Assembly: GCA_964519935.1 (NCBI GenBank)
Contig: CAZFLQ010000048.1
Span: 1-18,019, forward strand
DNA: 18,019 nucleotides
DNA from: an uncultured Puniceicoccaceae bacterium
GTDB taxonomy: Bacteria > Verrucomicrobiota > Verrucomicrobiia > Opitutales > Puniceicoccaceae
Reading direction: 5' to 3'
Below the pieces are notes generated by a model that was not told the origin of the DNA, searched no databases, and was given only the letters and a program-made list of their open reading frames with translations. The translations under genes and the position numbers were made by a program. This document shows, one piece after another, positions 71-14,510 of the stretch (the first letter of the stretch is position 1; each line of letters opens with the position of its first letter).

Positions 71-826
71 TTAGCCGTGGGCGAAAGCGACGGCGTCGAT
101 CGGGGTGGCCCCGGCGCGGTGGAGGGCACTGGCGGCGGCCTCGAAGGTGGCGCCGGTGGTCTGGACATCGTCGAGAAGGACGATCCGTTGTCTTCGGACA
201 CTGGGGATCATGTCCGGGGGGACGGCGAAGGCGTGGCGGACATTTTTCATCCGGTTTTGGCGGGTGCGGGCGGAGTAGGCTTGGGCGGGGGTTTCGCGAA
301 TGCGGTCGAGGGCCTCGATGACGGTTAGACCGAGATCGGGGGCTAGGCCGGGTAAGGCCCTCGCGATGAGGGTGGATTGGTTGAAACCGCGTTCACGGAG
401 ACGGATGCGGGCGAGCGGGATGGGCACGACAGTGGCGTTCCGGAGCAGGTTGCGGACGTGGGAGTTGGCGAGAAGGGCGCGGGCGATATCGGGAGCGATC
501 CAGCGCTGTTTTTCGTATTTGAGACGAACGACGAAATGGCGTGAGGCATCGTTGAGGAGGACCGCCGAACGCGCGTGCCGGACGTGGGGGTTGTGGTATG
601 CAAGACAGTCCTCGCAGGTTGCGCTGGTGTTCAGTCCGGGGAGCGGTTTGCCGCAGCGGTCGCAGATGGGTTCGCTGATAAAGGCGAGGCGAGTGCGGAC
701 AAAGCTTGAGAAATTGCGGAACGGGCTGGTGTCGTCGAGGGGGAGGTTGGCGACCTCGCAGGTCCGCGGATAGATCAGGTCAGCGAAACGGTGGGCGACC
801 CTGATCAAGGGTTGCAAGGTATTCAT
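71..826 (-). CDS. comF: ComF-family phosphoribosyltransferase-like protein (ComFC/amidophosphoribosyltransferase-like)
   Basis: N-terminal double Cys pairs (ICDRCG..TCEDC) give a zinc-ribbon. C-terminal PRTase motif 'VLLDDVQTTGAT' is present. I place the start at the ATG at 824-826, which overlaps the truA stop (ATGA). The ORF track begins 9 nt further upstream at a TTG. Confidence 0.8.
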   Translation of the reverse strand: MNTLQPLIRVAHRFADLIYPRTCEVANLPLDDTSPFRNFSSFVRTRLAFISEPICDRCGKPLPGLNTSATCEDCLAYHNPHVRHARSAVLLNDASRHFVVRLKYEKQRWIAPDIARALLANSHVRNLLRNATVVPIPLARIRLRERGFNQSTLIARALPGLAPDLGLTVIEALDRIRETPAQAYSARTRQNRMKNVRHAFAVPPDMIPSVRRQRIVLLDDVQTTGATFEAAASALHRAGATPIDAVAFAHG

Positions 827-1581
827 CGATACCAAACCTGTTCGAGGGTGAGACCTTCGGGTGCGGCGGTGGGGACATCGACGGCTCTTTCGCGGGCGGC
901 GAGGATCCGGGCGAGATCGGGTCGATCCAGTTTCCCGAGGCCGACCTGAATGAGGCCGCCGGCCATTGAGCGGACCTGTTTGTAGAGGAATCCGGAACCT
1001 TCGACGATGTACTGAATGCGGTCGCGGCGGGCGAGGATGGTCGAGCGGGTGACGGTTTTGACGGGGTGGTCGTCGGAGTCGCTGGTGGCGGCAAAGGCGG
1101 TGAAATCATGGGTCCCGAGAAAGACATCGGCGGCAGCACGAATGGCCTCGATGTCGAGGGGGCGGGATCGATGAGAGTAGTAGAAGCGGGTTTCGAAGGG
1201 AGGGGCGAACCCCCGATGAATGCGATAGACGTAGCGTTTTCCGGAGGCGGAAAAACGGGCGCTGAAGTCAGGGGCGACGGCTGTTGTGTCGAGGATCTGG
1301 ATGGAGGCAGGAAGACGGCTGTTGAGAGCACGGGTGAGGGTTTCGGGTCCGTGTTTCCAGTCGGCGTCAAAGTGGAAGACCTGACCGCGGGCGTGGACCC
1401 CGGAATCGGTCCGGCCGGCGCCGACAATACGGATGTCGCGTTTGAAACAGGAGCGGAGAGCCTTTTCGATCCGGTCCTGGATGGTTTGTCCACTGACCTG
1501 GCTTTGCCATCCCTCGAAGTCGGTCCCGTCGTAGGCAACCCGACATTTCCAGCGGGATTTTTTCTCCTGATTTGTATTCAT
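823..1581 (-). CDS. truA: tRNA pseudouridine(38-40) synthase TruA
   Basis: 'AGRTDSGVHARGQV' holds the TruA catalytic-Asp motif and the N-terminus reads 'YDGTDFEGWQ'. Length is about 252 aa. The start ATG overlaps the folC stop (ATGA). Confidence 0.9.
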   Translation of the reverse strand: MNTNQEKKSRWKCRVAYDGTDFEGWQSQVSGQTIQDRIEKALRSCFKRDIRIVGAGRTDSGVHARGQVFHFDADWKHGPETLTRALNSRLPASIQILDTTAVAPDFSARFSASGKRYVYRIHRGFAPPFETRFYYSHRSRPLDIEAIRAAADVFLGTHDFTAFAATSDSDDHPVKTVTRSTILARRDRIQYIVEGSGFLYKQVRSMAGGLIQVGLGKLDRPDLARILAARERAVDVPTAAPEGLTLEQVWYR

Positions 1582-2879
1582 CTTTTGGATACAATATAAT
1601 CGTGGGAGGATTTTTCCTGAATCCGGAGGAGGGCGGAGGATGGGTGGAGGGAGGCGAGGATTTCCCCGATAAGGTAAATGGATCCGGTTACAACTGTCGG
1701 GCGGGCGGGATCGGAGCGGTGGTCGCGGGCAAAGTCGGCAACGGTGGATTCGGTGACCTTTCGGGGGAAGTTTCCGGGGATGAGGGATCGGAGAGTGGCG
1801 GTGGGAACAGCTTTTGGTTGGTCGGGGGCGAGGAGGATTAATTCGCTGGCGAAGGGGAGGACGGTCTCAATGAGGGATCGGGCACGGTCGAGCCCGAGGG
1901 ATCCGATCGCGCAGGGGACGGCCTGGCCGACCCGGTTGGCAAGGTCGCGGAGGTTTTCGGCGAGGGCAGCGCAGCCCTCGGGGTTGTGGGTCGCATCGAG
2001 GATGACTGGGCCGATCGGGGAATCGACCTCCTGCCAGCGAGCGGGCCAGTGAACAGACCGGAAGCCGCGTTCGATTGCGGCGGGCGGGCAGGGGAGGATT
2101 GGGCGGACAGCGTGAAGGACGAGAAAAGCGGTCGCAGCGTTGCGGCGCTGAACCCTCCCGGGAAGATTGGTGAAGGGATAGAGGCTTTCGTCGGAACCAA
2201 AGTAATCTTCAACCGAAATGACGGGAGCCTGGCGGGAGGCGGCGATGGTGCGGATGGTGGATTCGGCGGGCGGTGGAAGACGCCCGATGGTGAGGGGAAT
2301 CCCGGTTTTGACAATACCGGCCTTTTCGGTCGCGATGGCCTCGAAGGTATCGCCGAGGATCTCGGTGTGGTCGAGCCCGATTGAAGTGATCGCGGTGGCG
2401 ACCGGTGTGACGATGTTGGTGGCATCAAGGCGTCCGCCGAGGCCGGTTTCGAGGACGGCGACCTCGACCCCACGCCGGGCGAAGGTGAGGAGGCCCATCG
2501 CGGTGATGTATTCGAAAAAGGTTGGATGATCGTCGGTGGCGAAGGGGGCGATGGATTCGGCCGCCCGGCGAACCATTTGGAAGGCATCGAGGAGGGCGTG
2601 ATCGCCGAGGGGTGATCCGCTGATTTCGATCCTCTCGCCGAGATGAACGAGGTGTGGGGAGGTAAACAGTCCGACCCGGTAACCTGAGGCGGCGAGAGCG
2701 GAGCGGAGGATGGCGCAGGTCGAACCCTTTCCGTTTGTCCCGGCGACGTGGAGAATCGGGTATTGGAGGTGAGGGTTCCCGAGGGCGGCAGCGAGGGCGC
2801 GCATCCGGTCGAGACCCAATTTGGATCCGCGGTTCCGAAGGGCGTAGAGGTCGTCGAGAACCGCCTTCAGGTCATGCAT
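1578..2879 (-). CDS. folC: Bifunctional folylpolyglutamate synthase / dihydrofolate synthase (Mur-ligase family)
   Basis: 'HVAGTNGKGST' P-loop typical of the Mur ligase/FolC family. Length about 433 aa. Lies immediately downstream of accD, as in the E. coli accD-folC arrangement. Confidence 0.85.
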   Translation of the reverse strand: MHDLKAVLDDLYALRNRGSKLGLDRMRALAAALGNPHLQYPILHVAGTNGKGSTCAILRSALAASGYRVGLFTSPHLVHLGERIEISGSPLGDHALLDAFQMVRRAAESIAPFATDDHPTFFEYITAMGLLTFARRGVEVAVLETGLGGRLDATNIVTPVATAITSIGLDHTEILGDTFEAIATEKAGIVKTGIPLTIGRLPPPAESTIRTIAASRQAPVISVEDYFGSDESLYPFTNLPGRVQRRNAATAFLVLHAVRPILPCPPAAIERGFRSVHWPARWQEVDSPIGPVILDATHNPEGCAALAENLRDLANRVGQAVPCAIGSLGLDRARSLIETVLPFASELILLAPDQPKAVPTATLRSLIPGNFPRKVTESTVADFARDHRSDPARPTVVTGSIYLIGEILASLHPSSALLRIQEKSSHDYIVSKR

Positions 2880-3911: not shown

Positions 3912-4967
3912 ATGGAGTTGGGAGAAGTGCGATTTCAGAAAACGGTTTTGGATTCCCTCGTAACGGCGTTGCCGGAGGAGGTATGGACCTCGGAGGCGAT
4001 TGAGGAGCGGTTGGCTCCGGCTTACGCGCGGGCAGGTTTGCAGCGCGGGCGGATCGAATTGATGACAGGCATCCGCGAGCGCCGGATGTGGGCAGAAGGA
4101 ACCCGTCCGAGCGCAGCCTCGGCGATGGCGGTGAATCGTTTGTTGGATTCTGTGGGGGTGGATCGGGAGAAGATCGATATTTTGATGCACACGGCGGTGA
4201 GCCGGGATCGATTGGAACCGGCGACGGCAGCGACGGTACACCGTCTGGCGGGCCTCGGAGGGGGATGTCAGATTTTCGATCTGTCGAATGCCTGTCTGGG
4301 ATTTTTGAATGGGCTCCTGGTGGCGGCGGCTTTTGTGGAATCGGGGCAGGCGGATCGGGTTCTGGTCGCAGCGGGGGAGAATGGCCGCCCGCTGGTGGAG
4401 GGGACGATCCGTGCCTTGAACGCAAAGGAGGATTTGAACCGGCAGAGAATCAAGCCCTGGTTCGCAAATCTGACGGTCGGTTGCGGGGCGGTGGCGGCCC
4501 TGGTTTGTCGGGAGAATCTGGCAACAACGGTCCATCCCGTCCGGTTGCGGGGCGGAAGCGGGGAAACGGACACGCGTTATTCCGAGCTTTGCGAGGGGGA
4601 TGCGTCGGGTGAGGAGTTGGTGATGGCGACGGATTCGGAGGAGTTGCTGGTGGCGGGAATCGGGGTGGCCGGGCGTTCGTGGGATCGGTTTTGTGAGGAA
4701 ATGGAGGTGGATGCGGGTAGTTTTGAACGGATCGTTACCCATCAGGTGGGCCGGGCGCATCAACGGGAACTTTATCGGGGGCTGGGTCTGGATCCGGCAC
4801 TGGATTATCCGACCTTTCCGGTCCTCGGGAACGTTGGGTCGGTATCGTGTCCGGCGACATTGGCGATGGCGATGGAGGCGGGAGCGGTCGTCGCGGGGAA
4901 TCGGGTCGCTTTGCTGGGGATCGGGAGTGGATTGAGTTCGGTGATGCTGGACGTGGAGGTTCTATGA
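3912..4967 (+). CDS. FabH-like thiolase (beta-ketoacyl-ACP synthase III family; OleA-like candidate)
   Basis: KAS III architecture: 'MTGIRERR' near the N-terminus, active-site Cys context 'FDLSNACLGF', 'VTHQV' (His) and 'GNVGSVSCP' (Asn). The stop overlaps the start of the downstream hydrolase. Confidence 0.8.
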   Translation: MELGEVRFQKTVLDSLVTALPEEVWTSEAIEERLAPAYARAGLQRGRIELMTGIRERRMWAEGTRPSAASAMAVNRLLDSVGVDREKIDILMHTAVSRDRLEPATAATVHRLAGLGGGCQIFDLSNACLGFLNGLLVAAAFVESGQADRVLVAAGENGRPLVEGTIRALNAKEDLNRQRIKPWFANLTVGCGAVAALVCRENLATTVHPVRLRGGSGETDTRYSELCEGDASGEELVMATDSEELLVAGIGVAGRSWDRFCEEMEVDAGSFERIVTHQVGRAHQRELYRGLGLDPALDYPTFPVLGNVGSVSCPATLAMAMEAGAVVAGNRVALLGIGSGLSSVMLDVEVL

Positions 4968-5860
4968 AGCACTGGAATCGGGAATTACCGGATCGGCTAA
5001 AGGTGCTGTATCCGTTCGAGCGCCGTTATTTTGAGCATCCGGACGGTGCCCGTCAGCACTACGTCGATGAAGGCGACGGGGATACGGTTGTGCTAATGGT
5101 GCATGGAAATCCGAGCTGGTCGTGGTTGTGGCGGGATCTTATTTTGCGCCTTCGGGGGAGCTATCGCTGCGTCGCGGTGGATCATATTGGGTGCGGTCTA
5201 TCGAGTCGGCCGGGGCGGGAATATGGGTATACGCTGGAGACGCACATCGCCAACCTCCGGCGTTTGTTGGATTCGTTGGAGTTTTCGAAGATTCACCTCG
5301 TGGTCCATGACTGGGGTGGGCCGATCGGTCTGGGGGCGTTGATGGGGCTGGGGGAAAAGTTGGATCGTGTGGTGATCACGAATACCTCGGCCTTTCCGAT
5401 GCGGGTGGGGGATTGGAAGATCGAAATCTGCCGAAAACCCTGGATTGGACCGCTATTGTCGGCGGGTTTGGGACTTTTTCCGAAAGGGGCGGTTCGCAAG
5501 GCGGTCGTTCATCCAATGGCGGAGGGAGTGGCGGAGGGATTTCTATTCCCCTATCGGCGGGCCTCGGAACGTCGGGCGATTGGAGCATTTGTTCGCGATA
5601 TCCCGGTCGGGCCACGGCATCCGACCTGGTCGACTCTAAAGCAGGTGGAAAGTTTTCTGCCGTCGTTGCGGGAGCGGGAGGTCCTCCTGCTTTGGGGAGG
5701 GCGGGATTTTTGTTTTGACGCGCGTTTTCTAAACGAGTGGCGGGATCGTCTGCCGGACGCGCGGGTTGAGTGGTATGGAGATGCGGGCCACTATGTGTTG
5801 GAGGATGCGGGCGAGGTAGGAATCGACGATATCGCGGGTTTTTTGGGAGTACCGGATTGA
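4964..5860 (+). CDS. Alpha/beta hydrolase, haloalkane-dehalogenase-like (OleB-like candidate)
   Basis: 'HGNPSWSWLWR' and nucleophile-elbow 'VHDWGGPIGLG' match the HLD/OleB-type fold. I place the start at ATG 4964, which overlaps the upstream stop (ATGA). The longer upstream ORF in the track is G-rich and implausible. Confidence 0.8.
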   Translation: MKHWNRELPDRLKVLYPFERRYFEHPDGARQHYVDEGDGDTVVLMVHGNPSWSWLWRDLILRLRGSYRCVAVDHIGCGLSSRPGREYGYTLETHIANLRRLLDSLEFSKIHLVVHDWGGPIGLGALMGLGEKLDRVVITNTSAFPMRVGDWKIEICRKPWIGPLLSAGLGLFPKGAVRKAVVHPMAEGVAEGFLFPYRRASERRAIGAFVRDIPVGPRHPTWSTLKQVESFLPSLREREVLLLWGGRDFCFDARFLNEWRDRLPDARVEWYGDAGHYVLEDAGEVGIDDIAGFLGVPD

Positions 5861-5960
5861 TTTGAGATCTGAAAACACGGGGGCGACCTTTTCGTAGAGT
5901 CGGGTTGGTTCTTGCAGTTGGGGGAAGGTTCGGGCAGGGTGGAGGGTTTAGGTTAAATTC

Positions 5961-7130
5961 ATGAGTGTGCGCCGTTTTGTTTCCAGCCATGTAGCCGATT
6001 TGCCCCGATCCGGGATCCGGGATTTTTTCGCGATCGTTGCGCAGATGCCGGAGGCCATTTCGCTCGGAATCGGCGAGCCTGATTTTGTGACCCCGTGGCA
6101 CATTCGGGAGGCGGCGATCTATGCTCTCGAACGGGGCAAAACCTATTACACGGATAACCGGGGGCTGCTCTCTTTGCGAAAGGAAATTTCGCGCTATGTG
6201 GAGGGCTTTTTCGGGGTTGGCTACGATCCGGGGGAAGAGATCCTCGTGGCGGTGGGTGTTTCCGAAGCTCTTGATCTGGCATTGCGGGCGGTCCTGAATC
6301 CGGGAGACAAGGTGATTTACCATGAACCCTGTTATGTCAGCTACAGTCCGAGTATTGTGTTGGCGCATGGCGTTCCGGTCGGGGTGGCGACGACCCCGGA
6401 GGAGGGCTTTACGCTGCGGCCGGACCGGTTGATCGAGGCCTGGGAACCGGGATGCAAGGTGCTGATCCTGAATTTTCCGACCAACCCGACGGGCGGGACG
6501 GTAGGTCGGGATTCTCTGGAGGCGATTGCCCGGTTTGTGATCGAAAAGGATCTCCTGGTGATCTCGGACGAGATTTATTCGGAGCTGACCTACGATGGCG
6601 AACACAGCAGTATTGCGGCCCTGCCGGGGATGCGGGAGCGGACCCTGCTGTTGCACGGGTTTTCAAAGGCCTTTGCGATGACCGGGTTTCGGATCGGGTA
6701 TGGATGCGGACCGGCTGAACTGATTGAGGCGATGATGCGCGTCCATCAGTATTCGATGCTGTGTGCGCCGATTCTGAGCCAGGAGGCAGCGATCGAAGCG
6801 CTCCGTAACGGGGCGGAGAGCGTTGCGATGATGCGTGACCAGTATCGGCAGCGCCGGGATTTTATCGTGCGGCGGTTCCGGGAATGTGGTCTACCCTGCC
6901 ATCTGCCGAACGGAACCTTTTATGCCTTTCCGGAGATCGGGGGGACGGGGATGGACGAGGTGGCTTTTGCGAGAGGGTTGTTGGAGACAGAGAAAGTCGC
7001 AATGGTTCCGGGGACTGCCTTTGGGCCGACCGGGGCAGGGTATGTCCGGGCGAGTTTCAGCACGAGCTACCGGCGGATTATCGAGGCGACCGAACGGATC
7101 GAGCGCTATGTTGGAGAGGTATCCAAATAA
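5961..7130 (+). CDS. PLP-dependent aminotransferase, class I/II (AspC-like)
   Basis: 'LGIGEPDF', 'NFPTNPTG' and the PLP-lysine context 'HGFSKAFAMTGFRIGY'. Length 389 aa. Confidence 0.85.
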   Translation: MSVRRFVSSHVADLPRSGIRDFFAIVAQMPEAISLGIGEPDFVTPWHIREAAIYALERGKTYYTDNRGLLSLRKEISRYVEGFFGVGYDPGEEILVAVGVSEALDLALRAVLNPGDKVIYHEPCYVSYSPSIVLAHGVPVGVATTPEEGFTLRPDRLIEAWEPGCKVLILNFPTNPTGGTVGRDSLEAIARFVIEKDLLVISDEIYSELTYDGEHSSIAALPGMRERTLLLHGFSKAFAMTGFRIGYGCGPAELIEAMMRVHQYSMLCAPILSQEAAIEALRNGAESVAMMRDQYRQRRDFIVRRFRECGLPCHLPNGTFYAFPEIGGTGMDEVAFARGLLETEKVAMVPGTAFGPTGAGYVRASFSTSYRRIIEATERIERYVGEVSK

Positions 7131-8566
7131 TGAATACAGATGCAGGTGAACGGCAGGTTGTTCTGGTCGGACGTCCGAACGTGGGGAAGAGCCGATTGTT
7201 CAATCGTCTGGCGGGGAAACGAATTTCGATTGTCCATGACCTGCCGGGGGTGACCCGCGATATTGTGACCCATCCGCTGAAAGGTGGACGGGTGCTTGTG
7301 GACACGGGGGGACTGGGGCTGGTCGAGGGGGCGACCCCGGAGGTGCTGCGGGAGGCTGTGGAGACGCAGGTTTTTGTGGCGACGGAAACGGCCAGTCTGA
7401 TTCTTTTCGTACTCGACGTGCGCGAGGGGCTGACTCCGCTCGACGAGGAGATTGCGATGGAGTTGCGAAAGGCGCGCTGTCCGGTCCGGGTGGTTGTGAA
7501 CAAGTGCGATACGGAGGCACTCGATTTACGGGCGCTGGACCTCGGGAAGATTGGTTTTGGGGATGTCGCGCCGGTTTCGGCGGAGCATGATCGGGGAATT
7601 CGGGCACTGGAAAAATGGATCTTTGATGTGGTTCCGGCGGTTGAGGATGCGGCATCGGAGGAGGATCTCGATGCGCATCGGGTGTCGATCTGTTTTGCGG
7701 GAAAACCGAATGTCGGGAAATCCTCGTTGACCAATCGGTTACTGAAGGCGGAGCGGGTGATCGTGAGCGATGTGCCGGGGACGACGCGGGACGCGGTGCA
7801 GTTCAATCTCGATTGGACGACGCCGAACGGTCGGGAGTTTCTGTACCGTCTGCACGATACGGCGGGTTTGCGGGCAAAGCGGAAGATCGATTCGTCGATC
7901 GAGTATTTTTCGGCTTTGCGGACGAAGGAGGCGGTCGAGCGGAGCGATGTGGTGGTGTATCTACTTGACGCCCTGACAGGAGCGACGAAGCAGGACCAGC
8001 GTTTTGTCGGGGACGTTCTGGAGGCGGGTCGGGGTATGGTTCTGGCAGTGAACAAGTGGGACCTTGCGCTGGAAAGCTTTGCGACCGGTGGGGTGGATGG
8101 ATTTACCGATGAGAATGCCTTCACGAGGGCCTACGAGGCAGCACTGCGGAGAGAATTGTTCTTTTTGCCGGAGTGCCCGATCGTCTTTCTTTCCGCGATG
8201 GAGGGGCACGGAATCGACGCCATGATGACGGCGGTGCGGAAGGTTCACCGCGTGCAAAATACCCGTCTGGCGACGGGACCGTTGAACCGTAAAATTGGTG
8301 AGTTGTTCGAGGCAAATCCGCCGAAGGCGAAGGATGGCAAGCGCTTCAAGCTGTACTACACCGTTCAGACGGGGGTGGCGCCGATCAGCCTGAAGGTCTT
8401 TTGCAACAACCCGAAATTGCTCGACGACTCGTTTCGGAGGTATCTTGAAAAGGGATTGGTTAGCGGCTTCAAGCTGACGGGGGCGCCTCTGGCGATGAGG
8501 TTTGTCGGGAAAAGCCGGGAGAAAAACCCCTTTGTGTCGGCATCGGGCAAGCCGCTGAGAGGTTGA
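7130..8566 (+). CDS. der: Ribosome-associated GTPase Der (EngA)
   Basis: Two tandem GTPase domains ('GRPNVGKS' ... 'GKPNVGKSSL') plus a C-terminal KH-like region. The ATG at 7130 overlaps the aminotransferase stop (TAATG). The longer in-frame ORF in the track is a G-rich artefact. Confidence 0.9.
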   Translation: MNTDAGERQVVLVGRPNVGKSRLFNRLAGKRISIVHDLPGVTRDIVTHPLKGGRVLVDTGGLGLVEGATPEVLREAVETQVFVATETASLILFVLDVREGLTPLDEEIAMELRKARCPVRVVVNKCDTEALDLRALDLGKIGFGDVAPVSAEHDRGIRALEKWIFDVVPAVEDAASEEDLDAHRVSICFAGKPNVGKSSLTNRLLKAERVIVSDVPGTTRDAVQFNLDWTTPNGREFLYRLHDTAGLRAKRKIDSSIEYFSALRTKEAVERSDVVVYLLDALTGATKQDQRFVGDVLEAGRGMVLAVNKWDLALESFATGGVDGFTDENAFTRAYEAALRRELFFLPECPIVFLSAMEGHGIDAMMTAVRKVHRVQNTRLATGPLNRKIGELFEANPPKAKDGKRFKLYYTVQTGVAPISLKVFCNNPKLLDDSFRRYLEKGLVSGFKLTGAPLAMRFVGKSREKNPFVSASGKPLRG

Positions 8567-8836: not shown

Positions 8837-8955
8837 GGGGCGCCGAAAAGGGATTGCAAATCCCTTCTCCATAGGGGGCGCCGAAAAGGGATTGCAAATC
8901 CCTTCTCCATAGGGGGGCGCCAAAAAGGGATTGCAAATCCCTTCTCCATAGGGGG
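8837..8955. repeat. Three tandem ~38-39 bp direct repeats, each with a perfect 8-bp inverted repeat (AAGGGATT-gca-AATCCCTT)
   Basis: Unit 'GGGCGCCGAAAAGGGATTGCAAATCCCTTCTCCATAG' occurs three times head-to-tail, with hairpins at about 8848-8866, 8886-8904 and 8925-8943. Confidence 0.9.
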
Positions 8956-8990: not shown

Positions 8991-10388
8991 TCAGGAGTTG
9001 GGTGGGGTTTGGTCGGGGTTTTGCGGGGGTGCGGTCGTGGGGACTGTTGGGTTGCCCATTTTCCCGAGAAATTCGGGGAGTTCGATCCCGACGTTGCGGG
9101 TTAGGTCGTGGATCGGGGGAATGGCCCCGGCGAGTCCGGAAACAAAGGAGGCGGTAGAGTTTTTGCCGTCGGCCCCGCGCCCGCCTTCCCAAACGGTGAT
9201 GTTGCCGATTTCGAGGTTGGAGATTGCCTTGACCTGTTCGGCAACGAGTTCGGGCAGTTTTTCGGTGATCATGAGGAGGGCAGCGAGTTCGGCGTTGCCT
9301 CCGGCGGCCTCGACGACCTTGGCGAGACCAGCGGCCTTTTCCTCGAGTTCGGAGCGGTTGCCCTTGGCCTCGGCCTCCATCATGGAGCGGATACCGTCGG
9401 CCTGACCCTGCTTCTCGATGCGGATCTTCTGAGCCTCGGCCTCGGCGAGGGTCTCGATCCGCTCCTTTTCGACGAGGGCGGGGACGACAACGTTGGCCTT
9501 TTGGGTGGCGCGGTCGCGTTCGGCGCGCTGGACCTCGGCGGTCTGCTCGGCGGCGTAAGCTTCCTCGAGGGCGCGGGCGCGGGCGACCTTTTCGGCGGCG
9601 GAGGCAGCGCGTTCGGCCTCGGCCTCGCGGGTACGGCGTTCAGAATTGGAGTTGGCGATTTCGACTTTGGAGAGGTTTTCCCCGGTGGTGGCCTCGGCGT
9701 CGGCACTGGCAACGGAAATCCGTTTGTCGCGATCGGCGCTGGCCGAACCGACCTCCCCGTCCCGGTTGGCCATGGATACTTTGACCTTGGCTTCATTGAT
9801 CGCTTTGCTGGAAGCCTCCTGGCCGAGGGCATCGATGTAGCCGGATTCGTCGGTAATGTCCTGAACGTTGACGTTAATCAGTCGCAGTCCGACTTTTTTG
9901 AGTTCGACCTCGACCCCGTTGGAAATGTTTTCAATCAGCTTGTCGCGGTCGGCGTTGATTTCCTCGATGTCCATCGTCGCGATGACAACGCGCATCTGGC
10001 CGAAGATGATATCCTTGGCAAGCTCCTTGATCTCGGTCAGGCCGAGTCCGAGAAGCCGTTCGGCGGCATTTTCCATCACCCCGGTTTCGGTCGAGATCCC
10101 AACGGTGAAAGTGGAGGGCGTGTTGACCCGAATGTTTTGTTTGGAGAGCGCACCCTGAAGGTTGATGTCAATCGGGAGGGGGGTGAGGTCGAGGAACTGG
10201 TAGTCCTGGATCACCGGCCAGATGAAGGAAGCACCACCATGGTAGCAGCGGGCAGACTCTCCGCCGCTAACTTTACCGTAAACGACAAGGATGCGGTCAG
10301 AGGGACAGCGTTTGTAGCGGGAGGCGAACGCAATGAGCGTTCCGAAAAGCGCGAGGGCAATCGCGACGAGGAAGATGAGGATGTCCAT
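8991..10388 (-). CDS. Flotillin-like SPFH/band-7 domain protein (YqiK/FloT family)
   Basis: N-terminal hydrophobic anchor 'MDILIFLVAIALALFGTLIAF', an SPFH domain, then a long E/A-rich coiled-coil ('EAEAERAASAAEKVARARALEEAYAAEQ'). The ORF also reaches an upstream ATG at 10499, but that N-extension is P/R-rich and would overlap the nfeD-like gene. Confidence 0.8.
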   Translation of the reverse strand: MDILIFLVAIALALFGTLIAFASRYKRCPSDRILVVYGKVSGGESARCYHGGASFIWPVIQDYQFLDLTPLPIDINLQGALSKQNIRVNTPSTFTVGISTETGVMENAAERLLGLGLTEIKELAKDIIFGQMRVVIATMDIEEINADRDKLIENISNGVEVELKKVGLRLINVNVQDITDESGYIDALGQEASSKAINEAKVKVSMANRDGEVGSASADRDKRISVASADAEATTGENLSKVEIANSNSERRTREAEAERAASAAEKVARARALEEAYAAEQTAEVQRAERDRATQKANVVVPALVEKERIETLAEAEAQKIRIEKQGQADGIRSMMEAEAKGNRSELEEKAAGLAKVVEAAGGNAELAALLMITEKLPELVAEQVKAISNLEIGNITVWEGGRGADGKNSTASFVSGLAGAIPPIHDLTRNVGIELPEFLGKMGNPTVPTTAPPQNPDQTPPNS

Positions 10389-10443
10389 GGGAGGTGTGGG
10401 TCGGTGGGTTTTGGTTCTTTGCGGATCGGTATTCGAGAGAAAA

Positions 10444-11034
10444 TCAGACGACGGTTGTGGCGGTGGTCTCGGACACGACCGAGACGGCGTTGTTGCCAAT
10501 CACACCGACGATCTCGACGCGGGTGCGCGGGGGGATTTCAGAACTTTCGTCGGTGTAGGCGTCGATGATGCTGAGCCGGTTCTGGACCATGACCTCGACC
10601 TGTCCGGCTCCGCTGCGGGCGGCGGGAATGCGGATGTAAACCGAACCTCCGTTCCCGATCGCATTGTGGATGTCGATTGTTCCGGTGGTTTGAAGACGCA
10701 TCAGCAGCAGCATCACCCCGTAGATCGCAAACATCAGGGTGAGTCCAGACAGGGTCGCCCAAATCAGGGCAACCGGAAGGGAGGCACCCTGATTGAGAGC
10801 GATTCCGCCAACCCAGCCGAAGCCAGTGAAAAAGGCGGTGACGGTACGAAATGAAAGGATCCCAAGCCCAGTGGTGTGATCGGTGGCGGCACCGATGTCG
10901 GGCAGATCGGTAGAGTGTCCGCCGATCCCGATGATTGAAAGAATCAGATCGAAGAGCATCAAAGCAAGGGAGACAATGCCGATGCCGTAAAGAAGCTGTT
11001 TCTCGAAATCGAGACTGATCCACCAGTCAACCAT
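10444..11034 (-). CDS. NfeD/YqiJ-like membrane protein (flotillin-associated)
   Basis: Three predicted TM helices followed by a beta-rich OB-fold-like C-terminus ('GSVYIRIPAARSGAGQVEVMVQNRLSIIDAY'). Sits immediately upstream of, and co-oriented with, the flotillin gene, as in yqiJ-yqiK and yuaF-floT operons. Confidence 0.7.
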   Translation of the reverse strand: MVDWWISLDFEKQLLYGIGIVSLALMLFDLILSIIGIGGHSTDLPDIGAATDHTTGLGILSFRTVTAFFTGFGWVGGIALNQGASLPVALIWATLSGLTLMFAIYGVMLLLMRLQTTGTIDIHNAIGNGGSVYIRIPAARSGAGQVEVMVQNRLSIIDAYTDESSEIPPRTRVEIVGVIGNNAVSVVSETTATTVV

Positions 11035-11271: not shown

Positions 11272-12345
11272 ATGGATTTTGAATCAATCAACGGCTTAAT
11301 CGGGGACTATGAGGCTTGGCATGAGGCCTCGGTTGAACGGTTCGTGGGCCGTTTGCGCGAGGCTGAGGGGGTTGATCCGGTGATCGGGCGTTTTGGGGAG
11401 TATCTCCGGAGGCCGGGAAAGCGACTGCGTCCCCTGTTGTTGATTCTGGCGGCGGAGGCTGGTGGGTGTGGAGATCGTGGGATGGTGATGCCAGCAGCGT
11501 TTTCGGTCGAGGCGTTCCACACCTTCATCCTGATTCACGACGATGTCATTGACGAATCAGCCTCCCGCCGGGGCCGCCCGAGCCTTCATCGCGATCTTGT
11601 CGACGGGCTGGGGATGCCGTTGCGAAGGGGTGAGAGCCTGGCGGTTGTTCTGGGGGATCTCCTCTATGGCTATGCTCTCGAGGTACTCAATGAAGTAACG
11701 GCGGGACCGGGAATACGGGCGACAGCAATCCGGTATTTTTCGCGGGTTATTCAGGACACCGGGCTGGGGGAGGCGCTGGAGCTGAGCCTGGCGGAGCGTC
11801 CTCTGGCAGATGTGACGGAGGCGGCGATTGAGACCGTTTACCAGCTCAAGACGACCCGCTACACCTTCGAAGCACCGCTAGTTCTGGGGGCTGTTCTGAG
11901 CGGCCTGCCGGATGGTGCGCAGGAAGTTCTCGAACGGTATGCCCGCCCGGTGGGTAGGGCTTTTCAGATCGCGAATGATTTGCACGAGATTCGGGAAGTG
12001 ATCGAGGGGCGGACGGAGCTGGCCTACGATCTCTCGGGAGAGATTCGAACTCTCTATATGCTTCGGCTGATGGCGGCGGTTGGGGCGGGGGACGTTGAGC
12101 AAGTGGAACGTTGGGCAGGCGGTGAGGGAGAAGGGATAGCCGGGATTGTCGGACTTGTCCGAAGCGACAAAGGCGTGGAAATCTACGGGTCGCTGCGGGA
12201 GGAGGTTCTCGAGGGGTTCCGTCAGGGCAGGCAAATATTGGCGGCGGCAATAGACGAAGGGATTTTGCCGATCCGGTTTGCGTCAATTGCCGATCTTGTC
12301 GAGGCAAGGTTCGAGCACAGCGAGGCATTTGTATCCAAAAAATGA
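11272..12345 (+). CDS. trans-Isoprenyl diphosphate synthase (polyprenyl synthetase) family protein with degenerate second Asp-rich motif
   Basis: 'GKRLRPLLLILAAE' and an intact first Asp-rich motif 'LIHDDVIDESASRRGRPS', plus 'YQLKTTRYTFEAP'. The second motif is 'FQIANDLHEIRE', not DDxxD. The stop overlaps the polB start. Confidence 0.75.
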   Translation: MDFESINGLIGDYEAWHEASVERFVGRLREAEGVDPVIGRFGEYLRRPGKRLRPLLLILAAEAGGCGDRGMVMPAAFSVEAFHTFILIHDDVIDESASRRGRPSLHRDLVDGLGMPLRRGESLAVVLGDLLYGYALEVLNEVTAGPGIRATAIRYFSRVIQDTGLGEALELSLAERPLADVTEAAIETVYQLKTTRYTFEAPLVLGAVLSGLPDGAQEVLERYARPVGRAFQIANDLHEIREVIEGRTELAYDLSGEIRTLYMLRLMAAVGAGDVEQVERWAGGEGEGIAGIVGLVRSDKGVEIYGSLREEVLEGFRQGRQILAAAIDEGILPIRFASIADLVEARFEHSEAFVSKK

Positions 12346-14510
12346 ATACAAATGACGAATGCCTGGTCGGTCTCTGGGTTGATCCTGACGGGATCGTGAG
12401 GGAGGCCTGGAGGGATCGTTCGGGGCGGCGGACGGACCGGGAAGCCCGACTGTCTCCGCCGGTTTGGTGCAGTGCGGGGATTGCGGAAGAGTGGGAGCAG
12501 CGTGGCGGTGGGGGCACGGTCGTTGCGCTGGAAGGGGCGGGGGTCCTTGATCGGCGGATTACCTTTGGGGATCCGGCCGGGGCGGAGGCGTTTTTGAAGG
12601 AGCACCGGGGAACGGCCGAGGTGGAGGCATTGCGTCCGGCCGAGCACGCCTGGCTGGTGTTGAATCGCGGCCGGTTTTTCGAGGAGGGCACCTTGCGGCG
12701 TGTTCGGCGTTTGCAGTTGGATATCGAGACCGCAACGGGCGAGGGGAGGGCGTTCAGTGATCCGCACGAGCCGGAGGACCGGGTTCTCGCGATTGGGCTG
12801 AGGTTTGAGGGACGGAATGAGATCCTCGATTTGGGGGAAGAAACGGACGCGGCTGAGAGGGGGCTGCTGAAGCGGTTCGCCGAGCGTTTGTGTGAGATCG
12901 ATCCGGACACGATGGAAGGGCACAATATTTTCCGGTTTGACCTCGAATACCTGCGCGAGCGGTGTCGGCGTTATCGGTTAAAGCCAGAGTGGGGTCGGTT
13001 TGGGGAGATTGCCCGTTTTCGAAACAGCCGGATTCGGATCGCGGAACGGACGGTGGATTTCCCCCGCTGTGACGTTCCCGGTCGGACAGTGGTGGATACA
13101 TTTTTGTTGGTCCAGATTCACGATACGACCTCGCGGGAGCTGGAGGGCTACGGGCTGAAGGATGTCGCGGTGGCCTTTGGGGTAACCGATCCGGATGCGG
13201 GGGAACGGACCTATCTGCGGGGGGAGTTGATTGCGGATGCCTGGCGACGGCAGCGGGATGTGTTCCGGAAATATCTCGAGGATGACCTCCGCGAGACCGA
13301 GGGGGTGGCCTCGGTTTTGCTGCCGACCTATGTGGCACAGTGTCCCAACTTTCCGATGACGTTGCAGGAGATACTGCTTCGAGGGACGGCGGCGAAGGTT
13401 GATTCGGTTTTCCTCGAGGCGTATCAGCATGCGGATCAGGCTCTGCCAGTTCCGGGCAGTATCGAGCGATTCGAGGGTGGGTATAGCGGGAGTTTTGAGA
13501 CCGGGGTTTTCCGGCCGGTTTACCACTATGACGTGGCATCGCTCTACCCGAGCCTGCTATTGCAGATCGGGAGGAATCCGGTGGGGGATGACCTCGGGAC
13601 GTTCATCCCGACCCTCGAGCGGCTGCGGGCGGCCCGGCTGGAGTTCAAGCGAAGGGCGAGGGAGTCTACGGATCCGGAGGATGTGCGGGACTATGGGGCG
13701 CGTCAGGCGAGTTTCAAGATTCTGATCAATTCGTTTTACGGGTATCTCGGCTTTGCCGGGGCGCGTTTTGCGGACGGGAAACTGGCGGCAGAGGTTACCC
13801 GCCGGGGCCGGGAGCTGATCAAGCATTTGATTGGGGAATTGGGAGGGCTGGGGGTACGGATTCTGGAGGCGGACACGGACGGGATTTATGTGTGTCCGGA
13901 TGGCTATGCAGGTGGACCGGAGGACCTGTTGGGGGATCTTTCGGCGCGGTTGCCGGAGGGGATTGATCTGGAGTTGGGAGGCGTTTACGAGGCAATGTTC
14001 TGCTACAAGGCGAAAAACTACGCTCTCGCGACGGATGTTGGGATGGTGGTGCGGGGATCGGCCCTGCGCTCGCGGGGTACAGAGCCCTTTTTGCGGGAGC
14101 TGACGAGGCACTATTTAGCGGAGCGGCTCGGCCTCGAAACCCGTTCGACGCTCGACCTGGTCGAGGAAATGGGAACCGAAATCGAGGAACAGCGGATGCC
14201 GGTCGAGCAGTTGGCGAAGGCGGAGCACCTCGGGATGTCACCGACGGTCTACCGGAGCGGGGTAGAGGCTGGAACGAAGACCCGGCGGGCGGCACTGGAG
14301 GCGGCCTTGGGGATCGAGCCGCTCCCGAAACAGGGGGATCGGGTGGCCTATTACCTGCGAGAGGGTGATCGGTCGGAAAAGGCGGATTGGCAGCGGGCGG
14401 TTCCGGTTGAGGCCTACGATCGGGAGAGATGTCCCTATGATGCGGGTGCCTATCTGAAAAAGTTGCGGGCTTGGGCGCGGCGGTTTCCGCTCGAGCCGGA
14501 ACTGTTTTAG
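12342..14510 (+). CDS. polB: Family B DNA polymerase (DNA polymerase II-like) with 3'-5' exonuclease domain
   Basis: Exo I 'LDIETAT', Exo II 'HNIFRFDLEYL', Exo III 'YLEDD'; polymerase motif A 'YHYDVASLYPSLL', motif B 'KILINSFYGYLGF', motif C 'EADTDGIYV'. Length 722 aa. Confidence 0.85.
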   Translation: MNTNDECLVGLWVDPDGIVREAWRDRSGRRTDREARLSPPVWCSAGIAEEWEQRGGGGTVVALEGAGVLDRRITFGDPAGAEAFLKEHRGTAEVEALRPAEHAWLVLNRGRFFEEGTLRRVRRLQLDIETATGEGRAFSDPHEPEDRVLAIGLRFEGRNEILDLGEETDAAERGLLKRFAERLCEIDPDTMEGHNIFRFDLEYLRERCRRYRLKPEWGRFGEIARFRNSRIRIAERTVDFPRCDVPGRTVVDTFLLVQIHDTTSRELEGYGLKDVAVAFGVTDPDAGERTYLRGELIADAWRRQRDVFRKYLEDDLRETEGVASVLLPTYVAQCPNFPMTLQEILLRGTAAKVDSVFLEAYQHADQALPVPGSIERFEGGYSGSFETGVFRPVYHYDVASLYPSLLLQIGRNPVGDDLGTFIPTLERLRAARLEFKRRARESTDPEDVRDYGARQASFKILINSFYGYLGFAGARFADGKLAAEVTRRGRELIKHLIGELGGLGVRILEADTDGIYVCPDGYAGGPEDLLGDLSARLPEGIDLELGGVYEAMFCYKAKNYALATDVGMVVRGSALRSRGTEPFLRELTRHYLAERLGLETRSTLDLVEEMGTEIEEQRMPVEQLAKAEHLGMSPTVYRSGVEAGTKTRRAALEAALGIEPLPKQGDRVAYYLREGDRSEKADWQRAVPVEAYDRERCPYDAGAYLKKLRAWARRFPLEPELF

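Follow-up and report, generated by a model that had tools for sequence, protein, structure and literature searches.

A nearly palindromic 20-nt element repeated at overlapping stop/start codons of a Puniceicoccaceae contig: a candidate start/coupling cassette

We analysed a complete 18-kb contig (CAZFLQ010000048.1, 18,019 nt, hereafter the window) of a metagenome-assembled genome of the Puniceicoccaceae (Opitutales, Verrucomicrobiota); the nearest named relatives of its proteins are also Puniceicoccaceae. A 20-base, AT-rich and nearly palindromic element with 18 specified bases, which contains both an upstream stop codon and a downstream start codon, was found to recur at three junctions between unrelated genes. 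The repeat is real, lies far beyond chance and is more specific than a start context. We tentatively read the element, at a confidence somewhat short of even, as a cis-acting, lineage-specific start/coupling cassette on the mRNA of a genome poor in Shine-Dalgarno (SD) sequences.

The pattern GTATCCAAANNATGAATACA was matched exactly at 1573-1592 on the minus strand and at 7119-7138 and 12331-12350 on the plus strand, and no further match was found in the window when up to three mismatches were allowed. The exact form GTATCCAAA-NN-ATGAATACA occurred three times in the 18 kb, where none was expected, and GTATCCAAANNATGAATACA was matched in none of 200 dinucleotide-preserving shuffles of the window. 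All three full copies were in the sense orientation on the stop/start overlap of co-directional genes, and a shortened variant was located at a fourth junction:

1570..1594, minus strand: copy 1, folC/truA junction, TTGTATCCAAAAGATGAATACAAAT; folC stop TGA at 1578-1580, truA ATG at 1579-1581 (pattern match, open reading frames (ORFs) and Pfam)
7119..7142, plus strand: copy 2, aminotransferase/der junction, GTATCCAAATAATGAATACAGATG; aminotransferase stop TAA at 7128-7130, der ATG at 7130-7132 (pattern match and Pfam)
12326..12354, plus strand: copy 3, polyprenyl synthase/polB junction, the extended palindrome CATTTGTATCC-AAAAAAT-GAATACAAATG; synthase stop TGA at 12343-12345, polB ATG at 12342-12344
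818..833, minus strand: shortened variant, truA/comF junction, GGTATCGATGAATACC, read as GGTATC-GATGA-ATACC; ATG at 824-826, truA stop TGA at 823-825

The overlap is of the ATGA type at truA, polB and comF and of the TAATG type at der. The upstream proteins end in VSKR (FolC), VSK (aminotransferase) and VSKK (synthase), whereas the downstream proteins begin with MNTN (TruA), MNTD (Der) and MNTN (PolB). The truA and polB copies are identical at 27 of 30 nt, including 9 of the 12 positions outside the core. With a G+C content of 26-39%, compared with 59% for the contig, the copies form AT-rich islands of 20-24 nt. The variant at truA/comF lacks the CAAAN spacer and gives ComF the N-terminus MNTL; it probably belongs to the same family. 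A preliminary description of this DNA had reported the near-identical repeat at three unrelated junctions, the overlapping codons with shared VSK ends and MNT starts, and a weaker fourth copy at 818-833; all of these were confirmed, the codons and protein ends by direct reading at all three copies. The spacer of 2-3 nt given there had to be corrected, being 2 nt in every copy.

Most gene starts in the window carried no SD-like sequence, and GGAG, GAGG and AGGA were all absent from the 11 nt upstream of each copy, indicating that the copies are not SD sites of the usual kind. The 16S rRNA of an Opitutales genome (Nibricoccus, locus L029) retained the canonical CCUCC tail, and a published survey counts an Opitutaceae genome as one of the SD-scarce organisms whose anti-SD is conserved (PMC10783764). 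The earlier suggestion of an SD-poor genome is in agreement with both this survey and the window starts. Of the overlaps in the window, only the fabH-like/hydrolase junction (4950-4967; ATGA at 4964-4967) lacked the motif, and it had GGAGG 5 nt before its ATG, indicating that SD-like and motif-type junctions coexist in one contig.

The element might be an ordinary start context or a codon bias repeated by chance. An A at +4, Asn as the second residue and an A/C-rich upstream region without SD are indeed common at Opitutales starts, but these generic features account for only part of the motif. For comparison, about 104 kb of Opitutales DNA was obtained through protein homology, with 99 called starts including those of the window. 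Matches at 16 or more of the 18 positions were confined to the two junctions orthologous to truA and der of the window, and, of the remaining called starts of the related loci (about 100 examined), none had GTATCC at -11 to -6. Among homologues, an MNT N-terminus was found in 2 of 120 TruA, 1 of 120 Der and 1 of 120 PolB proteins. Together with the failure of all 200 shuffles to produce the pattern, these results led us to reject generic context or codon bias, which is almost certainly the wrong explanation. The preliminary description had left open whether the element was specific or generic; the lack of the motif at the related starts outside the two orthologous junctions, and the few copies per genome reported below, argue for a specific element.

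Exact scans of one genome per species for 185,579 species yielded 51 loci, and those of a metagenome collection yielded 75 loci. The maximum was two exact copies in any species-representative genome, a figure that concerns other genomes, since the source contig lies outside both scanned collections; look-ups of the proteins encoded at the edges of the window, aimed at further DNA of the source genome, returned nothing. In AT-rich genomes the ATG of the matches opened no ORF, and many of the matches were one conserved coding segment (Lactobacillus, Bacteroidales, Pelagibacter); such matches have the look of chance or of conserved coding sequence. In the GC-rich Verrucomicrobia of two public collections, real and unrelated genes started at the ATG of a motif identical at all 18 specified bases:

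L031: a sulfatase with a signal peptide
L101: a phage capsid protein
L025, also L105 and L122: a cupin
L027: a DUF3106 protein with a signal peptide
L013 and L080: a 311-aa protein conserved in both genomes
L019, L037 and L117: small proteins

Our own chance estimate from base composition was well below one match in all Verrucomicrobia of the collection, and a single match in another GC-rich phylum (L014) was about the chance expectation. An exact copy in L053, whose ATG opened only 26 codons, does not count as a gene start. Near-copies were located about 2.2 kb from the exact copies in L019 and L105. Two instances fell in prophage-like genes, namely the capsid gene of L101 and a region of small ORFs in L019; copying of the host's translation signals is to be expected of phages. 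In viral contigs, the ACG variant of the motif gave one match, in a contig of 37% G+C where the ATG opened no ORF, and was rejected.

Approximately 7-9 of the 16 independent instances lay on an overlap. In the gene tables of related loci, some 16% of the called pairs overlap, which gives a roughly three-fold enrichment. The remaining copies at gene starts were mostly 14-34 nt past the stop of a co-directional upstream ORF; by the same gene tables, about 60% of genes in the related loci have a co-directional neighbour within 40 nt. The association with overlaps is therefore a tendency, not a rule. Restriction to overlapping junctions was not upheld, as other genomes carry copies 14-34 nt after a stop and a few in a 5' region, within genes or ahead of an rRNA gene. 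The proposed re-initiation or coupling function fits the sense orientation and the register with real starts, which hold both in the window and in independent genes of other Verrucomicrobia.

The orthologous junctions of related genomes were then compared, with identities given for the downstream protein:

folC/truA, L128 (TruA 77% identity): GTATCCgAAAAATGAATtCA in register; the following N-terminal extension is unalignable, and the gene caller chose a later Met
folC/truA, L130 (TruA 65%): motif absent
aminotransferase/der, L135 (Der 91%): GTATCCAgAAAATGAATACA; identity of 18/20, versus 41/60 and 46/60 in the flanks
aminotransferase/der, L136 (Der 88%): ATGA overlap retained, sequence unrelated
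aminotransferase/der, L137 (Der 76%): 11-nt spacer with GAAGGAAG
synthase/polB, L140 (PolB 71%): 17-nt spacer, GGGAGG 8 nt before the ATG, motif absent
synthase/polB, L141 (PolB 65%): upstream neighbour different

The motif was kept, at 16-17 of 18 positions, in the closest orthologues only (16 of 18 at the truA junction of L128), whereas the distant ones had SD-like sequences or nothing. In these closest relatives it was better conserved than its flanks, both at der in L135 and at truA in L128. Conservation at orthologous junctions, a check suggested earlier, was thus seen in L128 and L135 and failed in L130, L136, L137 and L140. From these alignments, the motif and SD-like sequences appear to be interchangeable at orthologous junctions, and the comparison indicates that the motif arises and vanishes in place over short evolutionary distances. 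The distance between conserved anchors with and without the motif was 41 and 44 nt at der and 39 and 54 nt at polB; the junctions being of the same length or shorter with the motif, there is no footprint of an insertion.

A side result concerns annotation. In L128 (1719-1766), the closest relative, the public TruA call (P0002) begins at an internal Met, and an in-frame motif ATG 45 nt upstream restores the conserved RRWMC region. Gene callers seem to miss motif-bearing starts.

These comparisons bear on the possibility that the element is a copied short repeat, similar to repetitive extragenic palindromic (REP) sequences or miniature inverted-repeat transposable elements (MITEs), or spread by short-patch gene conversion or an uptake-sequence-like drive, with the start codon incidental. 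The near-identity of copies within the genome (truA and polB, as given above), their clustering (3-4 in 11.5 kb, versus at most two per relative genome, with the near-copies in L019 and L105 as a parallel) and the rapid change of presence and absence between close relatives would suit such copying. The absence of an insertion footprint would not, the polB junction with the motif being 15 nt shorter and the der junction slightly shorter too, and homology in the flanks that could seed recombination is absent. The imperfect palindrome is of the kind seen in REPs and in the bacterial interspersed mosaic elements (BIMEs) built from them, which are likewise dispersed, 20-30 nt long and near-identical within a genome. 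However, REP/BIME sequences are extragenic, occur in both orientations and in hundreds, and are linked to REP-associated tyrosine transposases (RAYTs), whereas the element here is half coding and registered with starts; its junctions are not lengthened, the window copies are all in sense, in register with starts and partly coding, and Pfam scans revealed no transposase or RAYT gene in the window. DNA uptake sequences and uptake signal sequences occur roughly once per kb, in either orientation and independently of start codons. The element, with at most two exact copies per species-representative genome and all window copies at starts, does not resemble them. The presence of the same sequence in different Opitutales families further argues for functional constraint. 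We consider copying distinctly unlikely, and spread by insertion or gene conversion, the latter being one of the explanations first offered, is not favoured given the near-equal junction lengths and the missing flanking homology.

The element is also an imperfect inverted repeat, GTATCC-N7-GAATAC, a feature absent from the preliminary description. In the polB copy (12326-12354) the arms are lengthened to 11 nt, CATTTGTATCC/GAATACAAATG, with a single C.A mismatch, and the comF variant has a 5-bp inverted repeat around its ATG with a shorter loop. The RNA core was predicted to form a small hairpin, the CA of CCAAA pairing with the U and G of the AUG. The folding energy was -2.7 kcal/mol (z = -2.75) for the core of the truA copy, -7.2 kcal/mol (z = -5.8) for the polB copy, -3.9 kcal/mol (z = -2.35) for the comF variant and -5.3 kcal/mol for the der orthologue of L135. 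Hairpins with these two AUG bases paired were predicted in four of the five folded sequences, with z from -2.4 to -5.8.

Allowing up to one mismatch, extra palindromes of the form GTATCC-N7-GRATAC were found six times in the Verrucomicrobia loci, versus 0.7 expected; two had an ATG or GTG in the same register, one was a decayed copy in a 5' leader and three were in coding DNA. In L029 (208-249; Nibricoccus sp., JASGKG010000001.1) the motif is preceded by a perfect palindrome, GTATCCGATTTTAGGATAC, with 3 bases between the two, and the motif ATG there opens only 37 codons. The perfect-palindrome version GTATCCAAANNATGGATAC was searched for in IMG/VR, and the 57 matches (L145-L201) were a few conserved phage coding segments in antisense and not starts, so that they were set aside. 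These phage segments encode ..G-I-H-D-L-D-T.., the same peptide as at a match of L015 within gcvP.

A function in translation is suggested by the fixed register and sense orientation, the built-in stop, the AT-rich island, the alternation with SD-like sequences and the occurrence in prophage genes. The cassette would supply the final codons of the upstream gene with its stop, the downstream AUG with the A-rich codons 2-3 (AAU ACA), and the short imperfect inverted repeat GUAUCC/GAAUAC. A weak hairpin with the U and G of the AUG paired might hide this codon from free ribosomes, and a ribosome completing the upstream ORF would melt the hairpin, terminate 1-4 nt from the AUG and re-initiate there without an SD. 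Where it follows a short spacer or lies in a 5' leader, the cassette would provide an initiation region that needs no SD. Such hairpin-gated termination-reinitiation would be the most economical mechanism, and the cassette would accordingly be expected to promote or gate initiation or re-initiation.

Several observations weigh against this view. A few exact copies do not open a gene: one is antisense inside gcvP (L015, 1747-1766) in a genus-level relative of the window, one is in frame inside the ORF of a menE-like acyl-CoA ligase (L062, 441-460; ..SIQKMNTS..), where it may or may not be an internal start, and one precedes the 16S rRNA gene of an rRNA operon by about 460 nt (L029). ORF length proved to be unreliable evidence for a gene start in GC-rich DNA, and L015 and L062 were reclassified after Pfam and frame checks. 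The genome with an 88%-identical Der (L136) retains the ATGA overlap in the absence of the motif, indicating that the motif is not required for the junction. The hairpin of the der copy is marginal (-1.5 kcal/mol, z = -0.5, within the range of shuffles), the copy in L128 has one broken arm pair without compensation, and no compensatory changes were seen among the few variants of the arms, which are invariant in nearly all copies. Moreover, hairpins enclosing the start were not enriched in the clade when 99 called starts were compared with 2,923 random ATGs. This excludes generic start-codon hairpins as the explanation and indicates that the sequence matters, not the fold alone. Structure and AT-richness need far less information than an identity of 18 of 18 positions, and no recognition partner for such identity was found. 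Hairpin gating thus leaves 18 identical positions unexplained, and a sequence-specific partner or copying remains likely.

The sequence specificity presumably reflects a partner, and pairing with rRNA, as far as tested, does not appear to be that partner. Duplex energies of the element with the 16S and 23S rRNAs of Nibricoccus (L029), another genus than the source, were no better than those of 300 shuffles, the fraction at least as good being 0.19-0.73. An rRNA scan of the motif gave 6-nt matches only, with equally long matches at other rRNA sites. The sole complementarity to the 16S tail, between AUCCAA and UUGGAU just 5' of the anti-SD, is at chance level, and two of its bases close helix 45. 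The rRNA complementarity proposed earlier was therefore not supported, and rRNA pairing was rejected. A related version of the start/coupling reading is that the cassette is a sequence-specific substitute for SD, read by a ribosomal component or an initiation factor peculiar to Opitutales and gained or lost gene by gene. It would then be comparable to the termination upstream ribosome-binding sites of viruses or to a strong Kozak element; we hold this to be a minority possibility.

Alternatively, the element may be a translational operator, in which the AUG hairpin or sequence is bound by a trans-acting RNA-binding protein or an antisense small RNA that represses or activates unrelated mRNAs jointly. 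T4 RegA, the MS2 coat-protein operator and CsrA targets are analogues. The high information content, with an identical sequence on unrelated mRNAs, the AUG inside the hairpin and the same sequence across Opitutales genera would all be explained, and so would the finding that hairpins are no generic feature of clade starts, since in an operator the sequence matters. The non-coding copy of L029 beside a perfect palindrome could be a decoy or a small-RNA locus, although on reading it had no promoter or terminator signature, no scan for these having been run. No candidate binding factor or small RNA was found, the carrier genes have no evident shared function, and the motif comes and goes among orthologues of 88-91% identity, which is fast for a conserved regulon. 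We regard this operator as unlikely, though less so than the other rival readings.

An operator could also act at the DNA level, the 6-7-6 palindrome GTATCC-N7-GRATAC being bound by a dimeric protein that serves as a repressor or as a transcriptional roadblock at 5' ends. The geometry of the inverted repeat suits such binding, with arms extended in the truA, polB and L135 copies, and the excess of extra palindromes in Verrucomicrobia loci points the same way, but three of these six, each with one mismatch, fall in coding DNA and could be due to chance. Two neighbouring sites of L029, 22 bp apart, precede an rRNA operon, and some copies elsewhere are intragenic or antisense, as would be permitted for a DNA site. 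On the other hand, nothing about a DNA operator would require its internal ATG to fall exactly on a start, yet that of all 3-4 copies in the window and of most copies in other Verrucomicrobia does, in sense. The window sites are also within operons at overlaps, where a conserved upstream promoter element is absent. This account is accordingly a doubtful one, to which we assign a low probability.

Other candidates were considered besides the start/coupling cassette. No conserved -35-like or other upstream element was present in 20 aligned instances, and TATCCA is too near the ATG and lacks the -7 T, so that a leaderless promoter was rejected. A plausible slippery run occurs in the polB copy alone, and a frameshift fusion at the A-run is thus no general explanation. 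Rfam at the gathering score gave no match over the window, and a permissive Rfam search at the polB copy returned only chance-level hits (E > 1). No such motif was described for Verrucomicrobia or Opitutales in the literature sources searched.

Among known systems, the termination upstream ribosome-binding site (TURBS) of caliciviruses and influenza B acts by complementarity to helix 26 of 18S rRNA, 15-70 nt upstream. Like TURBS, the element is a defined sequence at a stop/start overlap, of the sort thought to hold the post-termination ribosome, but it is bacterial, spans the AUG and pairs with Opitutales 16S/23S rRNA no better than shuffled sequences. The MS2/Qbeta coat-protein operator and the T4 RegA sites also comprise a short hairpin or sequence containing the AUG, the RegA sites being on many unrelated mRNAs; however, their sequences are unrelated to the element, which is chromosomal, in housekeeping operons and has no known binding protein. 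That ribosomes re-initiate at ATGA/TAATG overlaps is well established (Huber et al. 2019, PMC6728339), and the pairs studied there share with the window junctions the 4- or 1-nt overlap, compact co-directional operons and a downstream gene without a strong ribosome-binding site of its own. Whereas known overlaps rely on an SD in the upstream gene or have no defined signal, the window junctions reuse a discrete 20-nt palindrome, which elsewhere also stands past spacers. The Kozak-like contexts of SD-scarce Bacteroidota (PMC10783764) are similar in being SD-poor with a CCUCC 16S tail and in the A-rich positions at -3 to -5 and from +4 onwards, but those contexts are weak, degenerate and present at most genes, unlike this high-information motif at a minority of genes. 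The element itself is undescribed in the sources searched, whereas re-initiation at overlaps is already known.

If it acts as proposed, a portable 20-nt cassette would make initiation and re-initiation without SD accessible to mutational study in Verrucomicrobia. To our knowledge, start-codon choice in SD-sparing bacteria is poorly understood outside Bacteroidota. The cassette could also be of practical value as an expression part for Verrucomicrobia that are hard to engineer, and in recovering starts missed by gene callers, such as that of TruA in L128. Should the element instead serve as the operator for a protein that binds RNA or DNA, the genes carrying it would form a new regulon.

The genes of the window, with identities assigned by Pfam, were as follows:

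71-826, minus strand: comF-like
823-1581, minus strand: truA
1578-2879, minus strand: folC-like (Mur-ligase/FolC-like)
Listed between folC and the aminotransferase: accD, a fabH-like gene and an alpha/beta hydrolase
5961-7130, plus strand: class I/II aminotransferase
7130-8566, plus strand: der
8991-10387, minus strand: flotillin (SPFH/Band 7)
11272-12345, plus strand: polyprenyl synthase
12342-14510, plus strand: polB, family-B DNA polymerase
Listed after polB: pyruvate kinase and a GAF histidine kinase

In 99 of 120 homologues TruA starts with MRWKC, and compared with these TruA of the window is longer by 9 residues at the N-terminus. The N-terminal extension of Der, which had been described as unusual and as supplied by the element, turned out to be ordinary for the clade, as relatives have 4-10 residues before the G1 motif in the absence of the element.

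A plus-strand ORF of 486 aa at 9108-10568 had no family match and is the antisense shadow of the minus-strand flotillin gene. Long spurious ORFs of this type were frequent in the GC-rich DNA of the window, and ORF-length tests elsewhere were misled by them. The convergent spacer between der and the flotillin gene contains a tandem array at 8837-8955, comprising 3.1 copies of a 38-39-nt unit, GGGGCGCCGAAAAGGGATTGCAAATCCCTTCTCCATAG(G), with an 8-bp hairpin, AAGGGATT/AATCCCTT, in each; it had no Rfam match.

The GC skew was +0.1 to +0.33 (mean 0.23) over the entire window, independent of gene orientation. In related Puniceicoccaceae (L130, L137, L141 and L027), it was equally large and of either sign, from -0.24 to +0.19, indicating an unusually strong strand asymmetry of the lineage. 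In a close relative (L140, a contig of SRR28370423), the gene order was polyprenyl synthase, polB, fabH-like gene, hydrolase and aminotransferase. Compared with 3912-7130 and 11272-14510 of the window, this order indicates that the synthase-polB block is differently placed in the window, and the breakpoints of the rearrangement lie away from the motif copies.

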